A stretch of 64,000 nt of DNA from Alphaproteobacteria bacterium (GCA_965248835.1 CBDFLJ010000001.1:704001-768000), one strand, 5' to 3'; positions 9,841 to 17,903 are shown, numbered from the stretch's first letter. Numbers and translations: made by a program. The notes: a model not told the origin generated them from the letters alone.

Positions 9841-11073
9841 ATGAGCACAGCCGCCGCACGCCGCCGCCGCGAGGCCTTGATCTCCTATATGAGGGTGCGG
9901 AATTTTCGTGCGCTGCGAGATGTCGAATTCAAGGACCTGACGCCGCTAACAGCGCTCCTCGGGCCGAACGGGAGCGGCAAGTCGACGGTAATCGACGTTT
10001 TTGCCTTTCTTTCGGAATGCTTTGAGCTCGGCTTGCGGCGTGCCTGGGACAAGCGCGGGAGAGCCAAGGAGCTGAAGACGCGGGGCGCGGACGGCCCCGT
10101 ATCGATCGAGATCAAATACCGGGAGAAAGATTATCCCCTGATCACCTACTACCTGGCCGTCGATGAGCACGAAGGATCGCCGGTGGTCGTCGAGGAGTGG
10201 CTGCGCTGGAAGCGGGGCAGCTACGGCCGACCGTTCAAATTTCTCGAATACCGCGAAGGCCGCGGTGAAACCATTAGCGGAGAGCTGCCGGATGCCGACG
10301 ACCGGCGTATGCAGGTCCCGCTGAAGTCCGCTGATCTGTTGGCGGTCAACGCCCTGGGGCAGTTTGCGGACCATCCTCGGGTGGCAGCGCTGCGCGAGTT
10401 CATTACGGGCTGGTACGTGTCGTATCTGTCGGCCGAAAGCGCACGCGGTCAGCCCGAAGCCGGCCCGCAGGAGCGGTTGACGAGGACCGGCGACAATCTT
10501 GCGAACGTGGTCCAATACCTCGCAGAGTCGCACCCGGATCGATTGAATCTCATGTTCGAGGTCCTGCGTCGGCGCGTGCCCCGCATCGAACGCGTGTTAG
10601 CGGACACCATGCCGGACGGTCGGCTTCTCCTGCAGATCAAAGACGCGCCGTTCAACCACCCGGTGCTGGCGCGGTTCGCCTCGGATGGAACGCTGAAAAT
10701 GCTCGCCTATCTCGTGCTGCTGCACGATCCCGAACCGCCGCGGTTCATCGGCATCGAAGAGCCCGAAAATTTCCTCCACCCGCGCTTGCTGCCGGAGCTG
10801 GCGGAAGAATGCCGGGCAGCGAGTAAGCGCACGCAATTTCTTGTGACCACGCACTCCCCGTTTTTTTTGAATGCGCTGCGCGCCAATGAGGTGCGTGTGC
10901 TTTGGCGCGATGAACGTGGCTACACACAGGCGACGCGCCCGAGCAACATCCCAGGCGTCGATGAATTTTTGCAGCATGGCGCGCTGCTCGGCGATTTGTG
11001 GATGGAGGGCCAACTCGGGGTTGGCGATCCATTGGTAAACCAAGGTGCCGCCTCGCAGCCGATGGTTCGCTGA
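9841..11073 (+). CDS. ABC-type ATPase, AAA_21/AAA_15-like (putative defence-system ATPase)
   Basis: Walker A GPNGSGKS, signature ASDGT, Walker B IGIEEPE, H-loop TTHSP; no TM segments; visibly more AT-rich than flanks. Confidence 0.9.
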
Positions 11074-11078
11074 GGGCG

Positions 11079-11696
11079 ATGCCGGCACATCACTTGGTGT
11101 TTCTGGTGGAAGATGCCTCGACGGAGGCTCTGCTGCGCGGCCTGTTGACGCGCTTGCTTCCGGAAGGCTGCACGTTCGAAGTTCATCCATTCCAGGGCAA
11201 GCCCGATCTTCTGCGAAAACTGGAAGACCGGCTCAGCGGCTATTCAAGCTGGCTGCCGGAGGACTGGCGCGTAATCGTTGTCATCGACCGGGACGACGAT
11301 GATTGTCGATCGCTCAAGGGACGGCTCGAGGCCATCGCCGCGCGCGCCGGGTTGCGGACGCGGGCGGTCGCGGACGGGCGCTGCTGGCAATTGGCCAACC
11401 GAATCGCCATCGAAGAGCTGGAGGCGTGGTATTTCGGGGACTGGCAAGCGGTCCGGAACGTCTACACGCGCGTTCCCCAATCGATCCCAAATCGGGCCAG
11501 ATTTCGCGACCCCGATGCCGTATCGGGCGGGACGTGGGAAGCGTTCGAAAAAATTCTCAACACAAGCCGCTATTTCACCACCGGCCTTCGAAAAGTGGAG
11601 GCGGCCCGTGCCATTGGGGCCGAACTGGACCCGGACCGCAGCCGGTCGCGCAGCTTTCGGTGTTTCTGCGAGGCGGTCGCCGAGGCGACCGGGTGA
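11079..11696 (+). CDS. DUF4276-family TOPRIM-like putative nuclease
   Basis: VFLVED, VVIDRD (DxD), IEELEAWYFGD, C-terminal SRSFR; starts 5 nt after the ATPase stop. Confidence 0.8.
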   Translation: MPAHHLVFLVEDASTEALLRGLLTRLLPEGCTFEVHPFQGKPDLLRKLEDRLSGYSSWLPEDWRVIVVIDRDDDDCRSLKGRLEAIAARAGLRTRAVADGRCWQLANRIAIEELEAWYFGDWQAVRNVYTRVPQSIPNRARFRDPDAVSGGTWEAFEKILNTSRYFTTGLRKVEAARAIGAELDPDRSRSRSFRCFCEAVAEATG

Positions 11697-11753: not shown

Positions 11754-12080
11754 CTATTCCCCGCCCTCGAGCTCGTCGATGATCATGCCGTTGAGGACGG
11801 CAAGCTTGGTGGCGTCGTCGTCCGGCGACAGGTCCTGCATGCGCTCCATGTACGCGCGGATCTTCGCCTTGAGCGCATCGGCCTCGGTCACGCTCAGAGG
11901 CCGCTCGAAATAATGCGCCGCGAAGCGCTGGGCGATCATGCCGAGCGCGAACAGGAACGCGGCGTGGTCGCGGTCGACCGCCGCGCGGTCGAGGCAGGCC
12001 CGGGCGAACTGCTCGTAGGCGCCGACGCCGGAGCCCGCCGCTTCCAGCGCCTCGAGCAAATCCAGATACATCGCGGACAT
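11754..12080 (-). CDS. Hypothetical helical protein (108 aa), last gene of the pyr cluster
   Basis: ATG 2 nt after the pyrE stop (TAAGGATG); typical codon usage. Confidence 0.7.
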   Translation of the reverse strand: MSAMYLDLLEALEAAGSGVGAYEQFARACLDRAAVDRDHAAFLFALGMIAQRFAAHYFERPLSVTEADALKAKIRAYMERMQDLSPDDDATKLAVLNGMIIDELEGGE

Positions 12081-12082
12081 CC

Positions 12083-12784
12083 TTACGGGTTCGGTGCGAT
12101 CTCGGCGGCGCCGCCATGGGCCGCCGACCACGCCACGGGATCGTTCATGAAACGCTCGACCTCATCGAGCGTCGCGCTGTCGAAATAGTCATTCTTCTTG
12201 CACACCGCCAGCACGTCCCACCAGGTCGCGAGCGAAAGCATGGTCATGTCCATGCGCGCCAGAAGCTCCTTGGTCTGCGGGAAGATGTCGTAGTGGAAGA
12301 TCACGAAGGTGTGCGAGACGATCGCGCCGGCATCGCGCAGCGCCTGGCAAAACTTGATCTTGCTCTGGCCGTCGGTGGTCAGGTCCTCGACCAGCAGGAT
12401 CCTGAGACCCGGGGCGAAATCACCCTCGATCTGGGCGTCGCGCCCGAAGCCCTTGGCGGCCTTGCGCACATACTGCATCGGCAGCATCAGCCGGTCGGCG
12501 AGCCAGGCGGCGAACGGGATGCCCGCGGTCTCGCCGCCGGCGATCGTATCGATGGTCTCGAAGCCGACCTCGCGGACGATCATCGAGGCGGCGAAATCCA
12601 TCAGCGTCTGGCGGACCCGGGGAAACGAGATCAGCCTGCGGCAATCGATATAGACCGGGCTCGCCCAGCCCGAGGTAAACCGGAAAGGCTCATCGGCGCG
12701 GAACCGGACCGCCTCGACCTCGATAAGCATGCGCGCGGTCATCTCCGAGACCAGCGCCTTGTCGGGAAAGGCCGTCGGCAGCAT
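12083..12784 (-). CDS. pyrE: Orotate phosphoribosyltransferase
   Basis: [32 protein letters not shown]. Confidence 0.95.
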
Positions 12785-12834
12785 TCAAACCTCCCAGGTC
12801 GTTGTCCCGCCCCTCGCGAACCCGACCCGTCGGG

Positions 12835-13887
12835 TCACCGCAGGCCCGAAGCCACCCGCCAGCGCGGCGCCGTCGGCGGGGCGAAGACGCGCACGACATC
12901 CTCGCCGACCGAAACCGTGTCGAGGGATCGGCCGGAGCCTACAGATTTTTCCAGCACGATGGAGTCCGAATTGCGCTGTTTTCCGTAGAAGGCTGCACCG
13001 GAAATCGACACGAAGGTCTCCAGCATGTCCAGCGCGCCGTCCTCTTCGAACACCTGGGCCACGCATTCCAAGGCATTGGGCGCATTGAAGATCCCGGCGC
13101 AGCCGCAGTCGGTCTCTTTGTCCGCGCGCGGGTGCGGCGCGGAATCGGTACCCAGGAAAAACCGCGAATCGCCCGAGGTCGCAGCCGCGCGCAGGGCCAG
13201 GCGGTGCTCCTCCCGCTTGGCGACCGGCAGGCAGTACATGTGCGGCCGCAGCCCGCCCTGGAACAGCGCATTGCGGTTGATCATCAGGTGGTGCGGCGTG
13301 ATGGTGGCCGCGAGCCCTTCGGCCGCGTCCTTGACGTAGTCGATGGCTTGGCGCGTGGTCGCGTGTTCCAGCACGACCCGCAGCCCCGGAAAGCGCCGCC
13401 GCACCGGCTCGAGCACGGTCTCGACATAGACGGCCTCGCGGTCGAACACGTCGACCGCAGGATCCACAACCTCGCCATGGACCAGGAGCGGCACGCCGAT
13501 CCGCTCCATGGTCTCGAGCACGGCGTGGACCTTCTCCATCGCGCTCACGCCGTGCTCGGAATTGGTGGTCGCGCCCGCCGGGTAGAGCTTCACGGCATGG
13601 AACAGCCCGGCGGCGAAGCCCTCGGCGATGTCGGCCGGATCCGCGCTGTCGGTGAGGTAGGCGGTCATCAGCGGCTCGAAGGGATGACCCTCGGGGAGGA
13701 CCGCGCGGATCCGCCCGAGATAGGCGCGGGCTTCGGCCGGCGTGCGCACGGGCGGGTCGAGGTTCGGCATCACGATCGCCCGTCCGTAGACGGCGGCGGA
13801 ATAGGGCAGGATCGCCCGCAGCATCGCGCCGTCGCGCAGATGCAGATGCCAGTCATCGGGTCGGATGAGGCTCAGGCGCTCGGTCAT
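12835..13887 (-). CDS. pyrC: Dihydroorotase (type II)
   Basis: PDDWHLHLRD, KLYPAGATTNS, YCLPVAK, GTDSAPH, CGCAGIF. Confidence 0.95.
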   Translation of the reverse strand: MTERLSLIRPDDWHLHLRDGAMLRAILPYSAAVYGRAIVMPNLDPPVRTPAEARAYLGRIRAVLPEGHPFEPLMTAYLTDSADPADIAEGFAAGLFHAVKLYPAGATTNSEHGVSAMEKVHAVLETMERIGVPLLVHGEVVDPAVDVFDREAVYVETVLEPVRRRFPGLRVVLEHATTRQAIDYVKDAAEGLAATITPHHLMINRNALFQGGLRPHMYCLPVAKREEHRLALRAAATSGDSRFFLGTDSAPHPRADKETDCGCAGIFNAPNALECVAQVFEEDGALDMLETFVSISGAAFYGKQRNSDSIVLEKSVGSGRSLDTVSVGEDVVRVFAPPTAPRWRVASGLR

Positions 13888-15131
13888 TGCGGCGGGTCCA
13901 TCAGCGTGTGATAGAGCAGGTCGCATCCCTTCATGAAGTCCTCGATATCCATCGCCTCGCGCGGGTTGTGCGAGCCGTTTTCGTTGCGGATGAAGATCAT
14001 CGCCGCCGGGATCCCGGCGGCGGCGAACAGCACCGCGTCATGTCCGGCGCCGCTGGCGACCGTCTGCGTCGGCAGGCCGAGCGCGCCCGAATGGCGCAGC
14101 AGGCACGCGGTCCAGGCCCGGTCCATTCGGGCCGGCGCGGAATCGATCCGCCGGTCGAAGGAGAACCCGACGCCGCGGTCCGCACCGATCCGCGCACATT
14201 CGTCATGGAGCAGCGCGTAGAAGGAGTCCAGTGTCTGTTCGCTCTGGCTCCTCGCCTCGAAACTGAATGAGACCTCGCCCGGGATGCGCGACATCGAATG
14301 GGCCTGTGCGTCGGTCTCGATGATGCCGGTGGTGACCACCAGATCCTCGCCGGCCTCCACGCGGCCGCGCCAGTGATCGTCCAGGGCGGTGATCAGCCGG
14401 GCGGCGGCGAAGACCGCATCGCGCCTCTGCTCGCGCGGCACCGCACCGGAATGCCCGGCCTCGCCGGTGCAGTCGATCCGCCGGTGGCGGATGTTGCCGC
14501 GGATGCCGGTGACCACCGCGGTCGGCGCGCCGGCGGCAACCAGCACCGGGCCCTGCTCGATGTGAAGCTCGATATAGCCGGCGACCTCGGCAGGGTCGAT
14601 CAGCGGCGTTCCGGTCTCGATCAGATCCATCCGCGCGCCGGCGCGGGCCATCGCCTGGCCCAGGGTGCCGGTGTCGTCGCGGTGCCGGGCGGCCAAATCT
14701 TCCGGCGCGAGCTTGCCGAAAAGCGCGCTGGAGCCGGCATAGGCTTTGCCGTACCAGGCGCTTTCCTCACCTCTGAGCGCGATGGTCTTGACGTTGCGCG
14801 CGGGCCGGACGCCTTCGGTCTGCATCCGGATCATTGCCGCCAGCCCGGCGACGACGCCCGCCGCACCGTCGTAGTTGCCGCCCTCGGGCACCGAGTCCAG
14901 GTGCGATCCGCAGGCGATATAGGGTCTATCCTCGGACCGGCCAGGCAACGAGACCACCAGGTTGGCCGCGCCATCGATCGCGGTCTCGAGCCCGTGACGG
15001 TGGGCGACCTCGCGCACCAGAGCGACCGCCTTGTCCTCGCCGCGGCCGTAACTCTCCCGCGTCACCCCGAGCCGGCCCCTGGTCGCGGTACGGAGATCGC
15101 GGAACAGCGCTTCGGCGATCCCGCGGATCAT
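13884..15131 (-). CDS. Zn-dependent N-carbamoyl-L-amino acid amidohydrolase (M20, AmaB/PydC family)
   Basis: GSHLDSVPEGGNYDGAAGV, GEES, ELHIEQGP, GHSG, SGAGHDA, GSHNPRE; 4-nt overlaps with pyrD and pyrC. Confidence 0.9.
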   Translation of the reverse strand: MIRGIAEALFRDLRTATRGRLGVTRESYGRGEDKAVALVREVAHRHGLETAIDGAANLVVSLPGRSEDRPYIACGSHLDSVPEGGNYDGAAGVVAGLAAMIRMQTEGVRPARNVKTIALRGEESAWYGKAYAGSSALFGKLAPEDLAARHRDDTGTLGQAMARAGARMDLIETGTPLIDPAEVAGYIELHIEQGPVLVAAGAPTAVVTGIRGNIRHRRIDCTGEAGHSGAVPREQRRDAVFAAARLITALDDHWRGRVEAGEDLVVTTGIIETDAQAHSMSRIPGEVSFSFEARSQSEQTLDSFYALLHDECARIGADRGVGFSFDRRIDSAPARMDRAWTACLLRHSGALGLPTQTVASGAGHDAVLFAAAGIPAAMIFIRNENGSHNPREAMDIEDFMKGCDLLYHTLMDPPQ

Positions 15132-16075
15132 CCCAGCGGGTCCACCCATTCCAGGTCGGACTCGTCGACCTCCTCGATCCGCAGATCCCCGACCAGATCG
15201 GCGATGCGGCCGACCTCGTGCCGGATGCAGTACTGCTCGATCCCTTCCAGCACGGAGACCATCGCGGTCGGATGCAGGAAGGTCGCCGTGCCCACCTGGA
15301 CCGCGCTCGCGCCGGCCAGGATGTATTCCAGGGCGTCCTCGGCGGTCACGATCCCGCCACAGCCGACAACCGGGATGCCGACCGCGCGGTAGCACTGATA
15401 GACCATGCGCACGATGACCGGGCGGATGGCCGGGCCTGAGAGCCCGCCGGTCACGCTGCCCAGCCGCGGCCGCCGCGCCTCGACGTCGACGGCCATCGCG
15501 AGGAAGGTATTGGCCACGACCAGCGCGTCGGCCCCGGCCCCCTCGGCCGCCTTGCCGATGTCGGCGACCGCAGCGGTATTCGGGCTGAGCTTGACCCACA
15601 AAGGCAGATCGGTCGCCTTGCGCATGGCCGCCACCGCGCGCTCGGTCGCATCGATCTCCATGGCGAACGCCCTGCCGTCCTCCTCGAGGTTGGGGCAGGA
15701 GATGTTCGCCTCGATGGCGGCGACGCCCGGCACGCTGACCTCCGCTGCGAGGCTGCCGAACGCCTCGACCGTGGGTGCGGAGATGCTGGCGACCAGGGGC
15801 GGGGAGAACCGAGCATAGGTCGGCACGGTCGTGCCATGAAAATACGCCAGCCCCTTGCACGGGATGCCGATCGAATTGAGCATGCCCTCGGGCGTCTCGC
15901 AGACCCGCGGGACCGGGTTGCCGATGCGCAGCTCGCGCGTGATGGTCTTGATCACCATCGCGCCCAGCCGGTCGAGATCGATCACTTTGTCCAGCCCCTC
16001 GGCGAAGCAGCCCGAGGCCGGCATCACCGGGTTGGCCAGCGCCAGCCCGCCGATATCGACCCGCAGATCTACCAC
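15128..16075 (-). CDS. pyrD: Dihydroorotate dehydrogenase class 1B, catalytic subunit
   Basis: NPVMPASG, GMLNSIG, NISCPN (class 1 catalytic Cys), VKLSPN, GGLSGPAI; GTG start overlapping the pyrK end. Confidence 0.9.
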   Translation of the reverse strand: MVDLRVDIGGLALANPVMPASGCFAEGLDKVIDLDRLGAMVIKTITRELRIGNPVPRVCETPEGMLNSIGIPCKGLAYFHGTTVPTYARFSPPLVASISAPTVEAFGSLAAEVSVPGVAAIEANISCPNLEEDGRAFAMEIDATERAVAAMRKATDLPLWVKLSPNTAAVADIGKAAEGAGADALVVANTFLAMAVDVEARRPRLGSVTGGLSGPAIRPVIVRMVYQCYRAVGIPVVGCGGIVTAEDALEYILAGASAVQVGTATFLHPTAMVSVLEGIEQYCIRHEVGRIADLVGDLRIEEVDESDLEWVDPLG

Positions 16076-16917
16076 GATACCGCTTCCTGCAGATCGAACA
16101 CCGGGCCGTCCCAGCACACCCGGCGATGGACCACCGCGCCGCGCACCCGGAACTCGCTCACGCAGCAGAAGCACATTCCCAGACCGCAGGCCATCTGCTG
16201 TTCCACCGCGACCTGTCCCGGGATGCCGTGCTCCTGGCCCAGCCGCTGCAGCAGCAGGAGCAGCCGGTTGGAGCCGCAGGTGAAGAAGGCATCAGCTTCG
16301 CCGCGGCCGATCAGCCCGCGGATCAGCCGCTCGATCCGGCCGGGCCCGCTGGTCCCTTCCGTATCGGTGACGCCGATCACCCGCGCGCCGATGGCTTCGA
16401 ACCGGTCGAGCGACATCAGCACCGCCGGCGTCCGGGCGCTCAGGATCGCAGTCACGCCGATGCCGTGGGCTGCCGCCAGCTCCGCCAGGGGTGCCAGGGT
16501 CGCAAGCCCGACGCCGCGGCCGAGGACGACGATGTTCCGCCATTGCGGATCCAACGTGAACCCGACGCCCAGCGGACCCAGCATGTCCAGCCGGTCACCG
16601 GCCTCCAGCGCGGCCAGGCCGCGCGTGCCGGCGCCATGGATCTTGTAGAGGAACTCGATCCGGCCCGCCGCCGCGTCGGTCCGGTAGACGCTCATCGGCC
16701 GGCGGAAGAACGGCGCGTTGGGGCCGCCGCCCGGACACAGGAGGTGGAAGAACTGGCCGGCTTCGACCGCGGTCTGTGCCGCGTCGGCCTCCAGCACGAT
16801 GTGCAGGTATTCGGCATTGACGGCGAGATTGGACAGCACCGCACAAGCCCGCTCGACGGCGGGCTTGCAGGGAACGGCATCGTCAGGGGCCCGGTGCGCC
16901 CCATCGGGCTCGATCAT
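16069..16917 (-). CDS. pyrK: Dihydroorotate dehydrogenase electron transfer subunit
   Basis: RRPMS FAD motif, GPLG, MACGLGMCFCC...VCWDGPVF [2Fe-2S] motif. Confidence 0.9.
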   Translation of the reverse strand: MIEPDGAHRAPDDAVPCKPAVERACAVLSNLAVNAEYLHIVLEADAAQTAVEAGQFFHLLCPGGGPNAPFFRRPMSVYRTDAAAGRIEFLYKIHGAGTRGLAALEAGDRLDMLGPLGVGFTLDPQWRNIVVLGRGVGLATLAPLAELAAAHGIGVTAILSARTPAVLMSLDRFEAIGARVIGVTDTEGTSGPGRIERLIRGLIGRGEADAFFTCGSNRLLLLLQRLGQEHGIPGQVAVEQQMACGLGMCFCCVSEFRVRGAVVHRRVCWDGPVFDLQEAVSW

Positions 16918-17039
16918 CGCTCTGGCTGCGCGGCCTCAAAGGGCGATGCTAGCCGGGCTCACCTTGCATCACAAGGCGTCAGGCGGGATTGCACCGGAGT
17001 GGACCGTCTGCTTTGTTCTGCCGGCAAGGGGGCCGCGCG

Positions 17040-17903
17040 ATGGACACGATCAAGCTGGGAGGGCTGGAGATCGCCCGCGTGCTGGAAGACGACAAGCCGA
17101 TCTTCTCGCCGTGGACGATGTATCCGGACTCGAGCCCGGCCGATCTTGAGCGCCAGCGCGATTGGCTGATGCCGCGGTTCTACGACGAGGACCAGGCGCT
17201 GCTCCGGACGAGCATGCACTCCTACGTCCTGCGCACCGACGACCACACCATCCTGATCGACACCTGCGTGGGCAACGACAAGCCGGACCGGCGGCGCGCG
17301 TATTGGCGCGAAGGCAACTGGCCCTATCTCGAGAACCTCGCCGCGGCCGGCTACGCGCCCGAGGATATCGACCTGGTGCTGCTCACCCATCTTCACGTCG
17401 ATCATGTGGGCTGGAACACGCGGCTGGTCGATGGACGCTGGGAGCCGACCTTTCCCAACGCGCGCTACGTGTTCAGCGAGATCGATCTGGGCTCGCTCAA
17501 GGCCAAGCACGCGTCCGGCGAGGGGCAATACGTCCACGTCTTCGAGGACAGCGTCAAGCCGATCCTCGATGCCGGGCTGGCCGATCCCGTCGGCACCGAC
17601 CACGTCGTCGAGGACGGCATCCGGTTCGAGCCGGCGCCGGGTCACACGCCGGGCCAGGTCAGCATCCGCATCGCGTCCAAGGGTGCGGAGGCCCTGGTGA
17701 CGGGCGATGTCTTCCACCACCCTGTCCAGGCGGCCTACCCGAGCTGGAACAGCGCGGCCTGCGAGCACCAGCCGACCGCCAAGCAGACCCGCAGGGCGGT
17801 CTTCGAGGGTGTTGCCGACCGCAACGTTCTGGTGCTGCCTGCCCATTTCGAGCCGTGCCGGCTGCGCCGGTCCGAGAACGGCTTCCGCTTCGCCTTCGAT
17901 TGA
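17040..17903 (+). CDS. MBL-fold metallo-hydrolase
   Basis: THLHVDHVG, GHTPG, GDVFHH, PAHF. Confidence 0.9.
   Translation: MDTIKLGGLEIARVLEDDKPIFSPWTMYPDSSPADLERQRDWLMPRFYDEDQALLRTSMHSYVLRTDDHTILIDTCVGNDKPDRRRAYWREGNWPYLENLAAAGYAPEDIDLVLLTHLHVDHVGWNTRLVDGRWEPTFPNARYVFSEIDLGSLKAKHASGEGQYVHVFEDSVKPILDAGLADPVGTDHVVEDGIRFEPAPGHTPGQVSIRIASKGAEALVTGDVFHHPVQAAYPSWNSAACEHQPTAKQTRRAVFEGVADRNVLVLPAHFEPCRLRRSENGFRFAFD

Follow-up and report, generated by a model that had tools for sequence, protein, structure and literature searches.

Does an alphaproteobacterial operon in which pyrimidine genes are joined to a carbamoylase-family hydrolase build UMP, break down orotate, or do both? The question arises at positions 11754-16917 of the window (the whole stretch of DNA that was analysed, 64,000 nucleotides), which the first-pass annotation had read as a reductive orotate catabolism operon with a putative ureidosuccinase. 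Six ORFs, all on the minus strand, are found there, the third of them an M20 hydrolase of the carbamoylase family:

16069..16917, minus strand: pyrK-like electron-transfer subunit, 282 aa, with a FAD/NAD-binding fold and a C-terminal 2Fe-2S domain
15128..16075, minus strand: catalytic subunit of a class 1B dihydroorotate dehydrogenase, pyrD1 (NF005574, TIGR01037, PF01180)
13884..15131, minus strand: M20 hydantoinase/carbamoylase-family amidohydrolase, 415 aa (TIGR01879), candidate N-carbamoyl-L-aspartate amidohydrolase
12835..13887, minus strand: type II (dimeric) dihydroorotase pyrC, 350 aa (TIGR00856)
12083..12784, minus strand: orotate phosphoribosyltransferase pyrE, 233 aa (NF001729)
11754..12080, minus strand: conserved 108-aa protein that accompanies the module, function not assigned by family models

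Profile models confirmed the identities given earlier for the five named ORFs, and the overlap claimed for the first four genes was verified on the sequence (7, 4 and 4 bases). These four genes are translationally coupled: pyrK and pyrD share 7 nt, with pyrD starting at a GTG at 16075, and the pyrD/hydrolase and hydrolase/pyrC junctions each consist of a common ATGA. A gap of about 47 nt, with GGGAGG inside it, separates pyrC from pyrE. For the small ORF the most likely start is the ATG at 12080, 2 nt past the pyrE stop, so that its product has 108 aa rather than 125. The operon is flanked by a divergent MBL-fold gene upstream and an HEC-01 pair downstream, and neither a transporter nor a regulator adjoins it in the window. 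As the first-pass annotation had stated, pyrB, carAB and pyrF are absent from the operon; pyrF is found elsewhere in this genome (G000:C1:1541098-1541754).

Three of the proteins pass curated cut-offs for orotate-pathway enzymes. PyrD1 scores 333.3 bits with NF005574 (cut-off 269), thereby passing the class 1B/PRK07259 model, 290.6 bits with TIGR01037 (cut-off 270) and 223.6 bits with PF01180; PyrC reaches 406.1 bits with TIGR00856 (pyrC_dimer; cut-off 292.95) and PyrE 389 bits with NF001729 (cut-off 245), the model that gives 202.7 to 405 for the pyrE genes that accompany the hydrolase in other taxa. The pyrK-like protein carries the PF10418 Fe-S domain (42.7 bits against a cut-off of 23.9) and four cysteines spaced CX4CX2CX15C; its PF00970 match is slightly below cut-off at 20.7 bits, and it reaches no NCBIfam PyrK cut-off, the best model giving 130.3 bits against 314. 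The 108-aa protein has no Pfam or NCBIfam match and falls in Atlas clusters labelled only "hypothetical protein". It is 81% identical in G002 and 60% in G005, and blastp relates it (E 1e-13 to 1e-6) to small ORFs adjoining the module in Rhizobiales and Burkholderiales, which in turn match the small ORF on the Klebsiella plasmid.

On balance we favour the reading that a widespread orotate-utilisation module is represented in this lineage by the operon, which here also serves UMP synthesis, the enzyme steps being assigned from context. PyrK/PyrD1 would reduce orotate to dihydroorotate with NADH, PyrC would open the ring to give N-carbamoyl-L-aspartate, and the M20 hydrolase would remove the carbamoyl group to yield L-aspartate, ammonia and CO2, the ureidosuccinase reaction (EC 3.5.1.7). 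PyrE would turn some of the orotate into OMP in a salvage branch.

The hydrolase is assigned to the hydantoinase/carbamoylase family by TIGR01879 (274.3 bits against a cut-off of 204) and falls below the more specific models NF009527 (411 against 461), NF006771 (380.7 against 399), NF058540 (281.4 against 520) and TIGR03176 (197.3 against 597.75). Membership in the allantoate amidohydrolase, ErtE or PRK12891 subfamilies was considered and rejected, as all of the curated cut-offs were missed. ErtE (NF058540), the N-carbamoyl-L-glutamate amidohydrolase of ergothioneine breakdown, is nevertheless the third best NCBIfam model and acts on the one-carbon-longer homologue of carbamoyl-aspartate, but the score is far under its cut-off and the gene context is unlike. 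The closest solved structure is the L-N-carbamoylase of Geobacillus stearothermophilus (3N5F, 170.5 bits), which shares the fold family. The metal and catalytic residues H77, D88, E122, E123, H190 and H388 do not vary among 18 hydrolase orthologues and align with those of 3N5F, and the general substrate residues Q193, H227, R236 and R294 are likewise conserved between the two. In contrast, the additional invariant arginines R120, R211 and R233, and also N213, stand where 3N5F has T, A, M and L, in an alignment of modest score. This set is a subfamily signature, present in 9 of the 9 members displayed and in none of 5 paralogues, and it would suit a substrate with a second carboxylate. The genes that accompany this hydrolase are pyrimidine genes rather than those of a hydantoinase and a racemase. 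Genomic context and the signature residues together make it a candidate ureidosuccinase.

The comparison with other genomes covered 94 loci (the window, 17 relatives and 76 of the best 80 of 584 genome_contigs relatives), which are the closest relatives and not independent of one another. At a distance of up to 5 kb from the hydrolase gene, these loci contain pyrE (77), pyrD (59), pyrK (57, with orthologues upstream of pyrD in 57 of the 94) and pyrC (35). A carboxylate transporter is present in 48; by type, an MFS transporter was counted in 34, TctC in 11 and TRAP DctM in 4. An XRE-type regulator is present in 31 and an aspartase/fumarase-type lyase in 6, the lyase gene being downstream of the hydrolase. 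Where the sequence extends 3 kb or more to both sides, 71 of 74 loci have a pyr gene and 43 a transporter. The conservation of the pyrK-pyrD-amidohydrolase linkage, which had been proposed as a check, was borne out overall (pyrD in 59 of 94 loci) and within the bacterium's own taxonomic order, where 13 of 18 loci have the pair beside the hydrolase, 14 have pyrC and all 18 have pyrE. That pyrE, rather than the reductase, is the hydrolase's most constant neighbour counts against the favoured reading. The module ranges over Alpha- and Betaproteobacteria, Desulfovibrionaceae, Acidobacteriota and Klebsiella plasmids, the last with MFS, pyrK, pyrD, hydrolase, pyrC and regulator genes, and eight relatives hold a class 2 pyrD together with a pyrKD-hydrolase cluster; both observations speak for an accessory role.

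The linked transporter types generally carry carboxylates. In Maridesulfovibrio sp. FT414 (locus L085) the gene order is regulator, DctP, DctM, hydrolase, pyrC, pyrE, and the DctP protein matches PDB 4NN3 (E 7e-196), a TRAP solute-binding protein of Maridesulfovibrio salexigens. The 4NN3 structure was solved with its orotic acid ligand in place, and PMC11668362 states that it "was bound to orotic acid". A near relative of an orotate binder is encoded directly upstream of hydrolase-pyrC-pyrE in FT414, but the operon in the window has no transporter of this type, and the best DctP relative in its genome, 37.5% identical, is elsewhere.

PyrD1 is proposed to act as an NADH-dependent orotate reductase, and the presence of a separate dehydrogenase favours this reading. 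The first-pass annotation would have been refuted if this were the only pyrD and its linkage were not conserved; the linkage is conserved, and a second pyrK-pyrD pair lies at C1:1110699-1112428. In a quick tree PyrD1 clusters with other hydrolase-linked pyrD genes, PyrD2 makes a group of its own, and the unlinked conserved pair is separated from the hydrolase-linked genes by a branch with an SH-aLRT of 99. PyrD2 is far more conserved than the operon pair (92-93% identity across three genera, 79-82% across families), and PyrK2/PyrD2 is probably the biosynthetic dehydrogenase. The earlier remark that class 1B enzymes are atypical for proteobacteria needs a qualifier here, as a second class 1B pair is frequent in this order (5/5, 5/5 and 3/5 genomes in three comparisons).

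The first-pass interpretation holds in part. For the gene family, orotate breakdown is well supported by context (linkage, transporters, the match to an orotate binder and the lyase), but three points do not fit a purely catabolic operon in this genome. A search for a separate class 2 pyrD found none in the genome; the sole pyrC and pyrE are co-transcribed with the hydrolase; and transporter and regulator are missing locally. The operon copy of pyrC is the single tblastn match for a type II enzyme, its pyrE is the only strong match, and no second copy of either was found. The nearest homologue of the regulator is on contig C2, where its neighbours are an MFS gene and a molybdenum hydroxylase; when the genome was searched by tblastn for relatives of the module's MFS transporter, none was found. 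Since these are the only pyrC and pyrE, and the operon lacks a dedicated transporter and regulator, the same transcript must also serve UMP synthesis, and in this genome the operon is probably dual-use.

The same facts can be turned into an argument for a biosynthetic pyrimidine operon, in which PyrK/PyrD1 would be an alternative dehydrogenase running toward orotate (for example at low oxygen) and the hydrolase either an overflow valve for carbamoyl-aspartate or an unrelated linked amidase. Besides the sole pyrC and pyrE, the translational coupling throughout and the locus without transporter or regulator, this explanation can claim that neither upp nor udk scored over the cut-off in the genome, so that UMP must go through the operon, and that class 2 pyrD is absent in the genus and in 12 genomes of genus g6; in the latter a class 1B enzyme must therefore run biosynthetically. 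Translation of the hydrolase is coupled to that of the sole type II pyrC in the genome, so that a carbamoyl-aspartate hydrolase would be produced along with the biosynthetic dihydroorotase; this looks futile and speaks against the catabolic reading. However, bacteria with the normal pathway have the hydrolase-pyrKD module as an additional copy, accompanied by transporters, a dedicated regulator and an aspartase-type lyase, and it also occurs on plasmids; a separate pyrKD pair with higher conservation could serve biosynthesis; and an unrelated amidase would not keep its linkage in 71 of 74 loci. We consider a purely biosynthetic operon unlikely.

Somewhat less likely still is a more radical proposal, that pyrimidine supply has been rewired around the operon. 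Searches of G000, G001, G002 and G005 turned up no canonical pyrB, and with class 2 pyrD, upp and udk also not found, every UMP would pass through the operon's pyrE. Orotate, dihydroorotate or carbamoyl-aspartate would then come from neighbours, with hydrolase and reductase balancing aspartate against nucleotides, or carbamoyl-aspartate would come from some other reaction.

The module might instead handle a different imported compound, such as carbamoyl-aspartate, dihydroorotate, an orotate analogue or a hydantoin carboxylate, from which the hydrolase would still free aspartate or an analogue. Some Bordetella loci consist of pyrE, hydrolase and TctC only, and with no reductase the module itself could not reduce orotate there; the transporter types differ (MFS, TRAP, TctC), and the regulator homologue in this genome adjoins the molybdenum hydroxylase cluster. 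These points are outweighed by PyrD, PyrC and PyrE, all over the curated cut-offs of true orotate-pathway enzymes, and by the only transporter with a solved relative, which matches the orotate binder 4NN3. We judge a different import to be improbable.

Two further schemes are very improbable. A disguised pathway of reductive uracil breakdown (uracil reductase, dihydropyrimidinase, beta-ureidopropionase and uracil phosphoribosyltransferase) would follow identical three-step logic and has homologous M20 beta-alanine synthases (1R3N, 116.8 bits; 8C46, 128.5 bits), but the pyr proteins exceed orotate-pathway equivalog cut-offs, the linked transporters are of carboxylate-carrying types, an aspartase-type lyase and no beta-alanine enzyme follows the hydrolase in the six loci that have one, and a PreA-like gene and a D-hydantoinase are encoded separately in the genome. 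Equally hard to credit is a hydrolase that makes carbamoyl-aspartate from another precursor, bypassing aspartate carbamoyltransferase and with all enzymes running toward OMP: the missing canonical pyrB and the constancy of pyrE as partner would suit it, but we know of no M20 carbamoylase-type enzyme that has a carbamoyl amino acid as its product, G000 retains a divergent ATCase-like ORF with most ATCase motifs, the aspartase linkage and orotate-binding transporter point the opposite way, and the hydrolase is among the operon's least conserved genes within the family.

The preferred reading, an orotate-utilisation module doubling in UMP synthesis, has several consequences. Ureidosuccinase is an activity from the 1950s for which our searches found no gene; the databases give the hydrolase no specific name, and a literature search found no paper assigning a gene to the enzyme, so this hydrolase subfamily is a concrete and directly testable candidate. 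Routine annotation as pyrimidine biosynthesis plus a "Zn-dependent hydrolase" leads metabolic models to read the module backwards. In addition, the module is merged here with the sole pyrC and pyrE, and the genome lacks canonical pyrB, which raises the testable question of the pyrimidine source of an uncultured wastewater-type alphaproteobacterium.

The closest parallel is the degradation of orotate by Clostridium (Zymobacterium) oroticum, which Lieberman and Kornberg reportedly worked out in the 1950s as a sequence of NADH-dependent orotate reductase, dihydroorotase and ureidosuccinase. The proposed chemistry is identical, from orotate through dihydroorotate and N-carbamoyl-aspartate to aspartate, NH3 and CO2, and the reductase there is likewise a flavoprotein of the class 1B type. 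Unlike the fermenting C. oroticum, carriers of the module are mostly aerobic or facultative Proteobacteria; pyrE and a small protein accompany the module, and the pyrC and pyrE of the window are also housekeeping copies. The class 1B dihydroorotate dehydrogenases (PyrDB/PyrK) known from Lactococcus and Bacillus resemble the operon pair in having two subunits, overlapping genes, a PyrD that passes the equivalog cut-off and a PyrK with an Fe-S domain, but the operon PyrK is below all PyrK cut-offs and the pair is hydrolase-linked and distinct from the genome's other pair, which is better conserved. Finally, reductive uracil and thymine catabolism uses PydA/PreTA, PydB and PydC, homologous enzyme families with the same logic of reducing the ring, opening it and removing the carbamoyl group; the module differs in a substrate that would bear a carboxylate, in a product that would be aspartate rather than beta-alanine, and in enzymes that are paralogues from the orotate pathway.

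The gene content and the overlaps described for the operon in the first-pass annotation are confirmed, the former by family scans and the latter by the junctions between the genes. Within the window, which is of high GC content (about 0.64-0.74), six minus-strand open reading frames (ORFs) lie between 11754 and 16917:

16069-16917, minus strand, pyrK-like gene (PF10418 Fe-S domain; under every NCBIfam PyrK cut-off)
15128-16075, minus strand, class 1B pyrD (NF005574, 333.3 bits against a cut-off of 269)
13884-15131, minus strand, M20 hydrolase gene (TIGR01879, 274.3 bits against a cut-off of 204; under the cut-offs of the allantoate, ErtE and PRK12891 models)
12835-13887, minus strand, type II pyrC (TIGR00856, 406.1 bits against a cut-off of 292.95)
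12083-12784, minus strand, pyrE (NF001729, 389 bits against a cut-off of 245)
11754-12080, minus strand, small ORF without a family match

The pyrK and pyrD genes overlap by 7 nt, an ATGA is common to pyrD and the hydrolase gene and another to the hydrolase gene and pyrC, and about 47 nt containing GGGAGG separate pyrC from pyrE. For the small ORF the most likely start is 2 nt past the pyrE stop, giving a product of 108 amino acids, and its matches in the protein Atlas are hypothetical clusters only. The operon junctions are those of tight coupling. A scan of the region returned no promoter-like sites and three terminator-like sites against 2.2 expected, and was uninformative. Directly downstream of the operon are genes for an AAA_21 ATPase (9841-11073, plus strand) and a DUF4276 protein (10998-11696, plus strand), which PADLOC matches to HEC-01, a candidate defence pair (525.2 and 267.1 bits); GC in the surrounding 10-12 kb falls to 0.637, its minimum for the window. 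An MBL-fold hydrolase gene (16989-17903, plus strand) diverges from the operon across a 71-nt spacer, matches AidB-type lactonases weakly (75.7 bits against a cut-off of 360), and keeps its position beside the operon only in close relatives (genera g1, g4 and g6).

The best explanation of the operon, which we hold with moderate confidence, is that it is an orotate-utilisation module. Orotate would first be reduced, the ring would then be opened, and the carbamoyl group would then be removed by the candidate hydrolase to yield aspartate, with part of the orotate being salvaged by pyrE. The linkage of pyrK and pyrD to the amidohydrolase gene, which the first-pass annotation had singled out, proves to be conserved. 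A search of 40 relatives detected hydrolase orthologues, 50-85% identical, in 30 of them, and at 18 loci of the order the genes beside the hydrolase gene include pyrE (18/18), pyrC (14/18) and pyrK-pyrD (13/18). The match between the presence of the hydrolase and that of class 1B pyrD is imperfect, with a 1B pyrD in three of five hydrolase-free genomes.

A profile search of genome_contigs with the alignment of the 18 orthologues returned 584 relatives, the best 80 of which are from Defluviicoccus, Roseomonas-type Acetobacteraceae, Bradyrhizobium, Xanthobacteraceae, Burkholderia, Pandoraea, Bordetella, Pusillimonas, Cupriavidus, Variovorax, Propionivibrio, Desulfovibrionaceae and Acidobacteriota. 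Neighbouring ORFs were grouped by clustering of all ORFs outside known genes. Among 94 distinct loci, which are the closest relatives and not mutually independent, the genes found up to 5 kb from the hydrolase gene were pyrE (77/94), pyrD (59/94), pyrK (57/94), pyrC (35/94), an MFS transporter (34/94), an XRE-type regulator (31/94), TctC (11/94), an aspartase/fumarase-type lyase (6/94) and TRAP DctM (4/94). Where at least 3 kb was available on both sides (n=74), a pyr gene was present at 71 loci and a transporter at 43. Three loci of Bordetella species (L083, L088 and L108) have a minimal module, in which a pyrE-like gene is followed by the hydrolase gene and then by two TctC (Bug) binding proteins, with neither pyrK-pyrD nor pyrC within 5 kb.

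The plasmids, the extra copies, a DctP match to PDB 4NN3 and the lyase point to an accessory module that probably handles orotate. Eight relatives have a class 2 pyrD together with the pyrKD-hydrolase cluster, and in Betaproteobacteria the pyrE that accompanies the hydrolase gene belongs to the NF001729 type of Alphaproteobacteria. The hydrolase occurs in 75 plasmid records, 53 of them from Klebsiella; in the single plasmid region viewed, from Klebsiella pneumoniae (NZ_CP050823.1, 56960-74183; locus L135), the order is MFS, pyrK-like, pyrD, hydrolase, pyrC, HTH regulator and small ORF. This module adjoins lacY-lacZ on an IncFIB plasmid, and the isolate came from milk. Orotic acid is abundant in cow's milk, and this origin may be no coincidence. 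Furthermore, the gene order in Maridesulfovibrio sp. FT414 is regulator, DctP, DctM, hydrolase, pyrC and pyrE, and its DctP matches 4NN3 (E 7e-196), a structure that, according to one paper (PMC11668362), was solved in complex with orotic acid. A gene for an aspartase/fumarase-family lyase lies 3' of the hydrolase gene in Pusillimonas-type loci and in one locus of the Desulfovibrionaceae, which fits aspartate as the product.

Orotate catabolism, as first proposed for this operon, is supported for the gene family by the conserved linkage, the orotate-binder match and the lyase, and for the source genome (G000; 4.89 Mb, two contigs, with the window at C1:704001-768000) it is only partly right. 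Against a purely catabolic role there, the operon locus has neither a transporter nor a regulator, and the genome holds no second copy of its type II pyrC or of its pyrE; the operon must therefore serve synthesis too. The sole homologue of the XRE-type regulator in G000, 51% identical to that of Maridesulfovibrio, is on the other contig (G000:C2:2085924-2090493; L134:6925-11494), flanked by genes for an MFS transporter and for the large subunit of a molybdopterin hydroxylase, with TRAP genes and an FAD monooxygenase nearby; this region looks like a separate N-heterocycle cluster.

The other pyrimidine genes of G000 are also unusual. The pyrF gene is outside the operon, upp was not found, and udk was not over its cut-off. 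Of 41 relatives, 36 have a canonical pyrB that passes its cut-off, as do 48 of 53 genomes in the order, but G000 and three related genomes (G001, G002 and G005) have none that passes; in G002 and G005, as in G000, none of canonical pyrB, class 2 pyrD, upp and udk was found. All UMP in G000 must pass through the pyrE of the operon, and the early pyrimidine pathway is unusual. G000 is not called ATCase-free, because a divergent ATCase-like ORF (C2:1144155-1145165; L120:1234-2244) keeps most ATCase motifs: STRT, KGE, HPTQ and R..Q are retained in the alignment, and APGP stands where relatives have HPLP. Pfam recognises the carbamoyl-phosphate half alone. The corresponding ORF of G002 is interrupted, and in G005 no counterpart was found. 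We considered whether this ORF is a decayed pyrB, but its flanks match G002 and resemble neither the G007 nor the G006 region around pyrB, leaving positional orthology unsupported.

A separate class 2 pyrD had been expected, and is present in 25 of 41 relatives; none was found in G000, its genus, genus g4 or 12 genomes of genus g6. PF01180 has five matches in G000. Four are over the cut-off, namely the operon pyrD, the pyrD of a second 1B pair, a weakly matching gene of class 1 type next to one like TauD, and a PreA-like gene; the fifth is weak and falls below the threshold. The PreA-like gene, of dihydropyrimidine-dehydrogenase type, adjoins a PRK07079-family M20 protein (694 bits) and an MFS transporter in the region G000:C2:1714302-1718627 (L008:6303-10628), and may belong to another ring-reduction module.

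The second pyrK-pyrD pair (G000:C1:1110699-1112428; L006:8640-10453) is 57% and 46% identical to that of the operon, and is surrounded by an ABC ATPase, a TPR protein, an MFS transporter and an isochorismatase-like hydrolase. Its pyrD shows 92-93% identity among three genera of the family and 79-82% between families of the order, and it occurs whether or not a genome has class 2 pyrD and whether or not it has the hydrolase; for the operon pyrD, identity is 74-93% in the family and 53-63% over the order. A quick maximum-likelihood tree, in which the outgroup branch is very long, splits 14 unlinked-pair from 59 hydrolase-linked sequences (99 SH-aLRT). The second pair is likely the housekeeping enzyme, and the operon pair would be the reductase of the module.

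Three observations stand against the orotate-utilisation reading. The hydrolase gene and the housekeeping pyrC are translationally coupled, a seemingly futile arrangement; the most constant partner of the hydrolase gene is pyrE and not the reductase; and there are minimal loci of pyrE, hydrolase and TctC that lack a reductase altogether. Our confidence in orotate utilisation goes no higher, and leaves room for rivals, because these features are unexplained by it.

The degradation of orotate is old biochemistry. In the literature outside most subscription journals we found no gene-level description of the pathway and no gene for ureidosuccinase (EC 3.5.1.7), and hydrolase names in the databases are generic. 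New here are the housekeeping role merged into the operon, the lineage's unusual set of pyrimidine genes, the finding of a second dehydrogenase pair that is conserved, and the conserved 108-residue companion protein. The closest solved relative of the hydrolase, our candidate ureidosuccinase, is the L-carbamoylase 3N5F (170.5 bits), and its metal and catalytic residues are all invariant across 18 orthologues. R120, R211, N213 and R233 are present in 9 of 9 displayed members of the pyr-linked subfamily, drawn from four phyla or classes, and the extra arginines are suggestive of a substrate that bears a second carboxylate. Other residues occupy these positions in five paralogues from the same genomes and in 3N5F.
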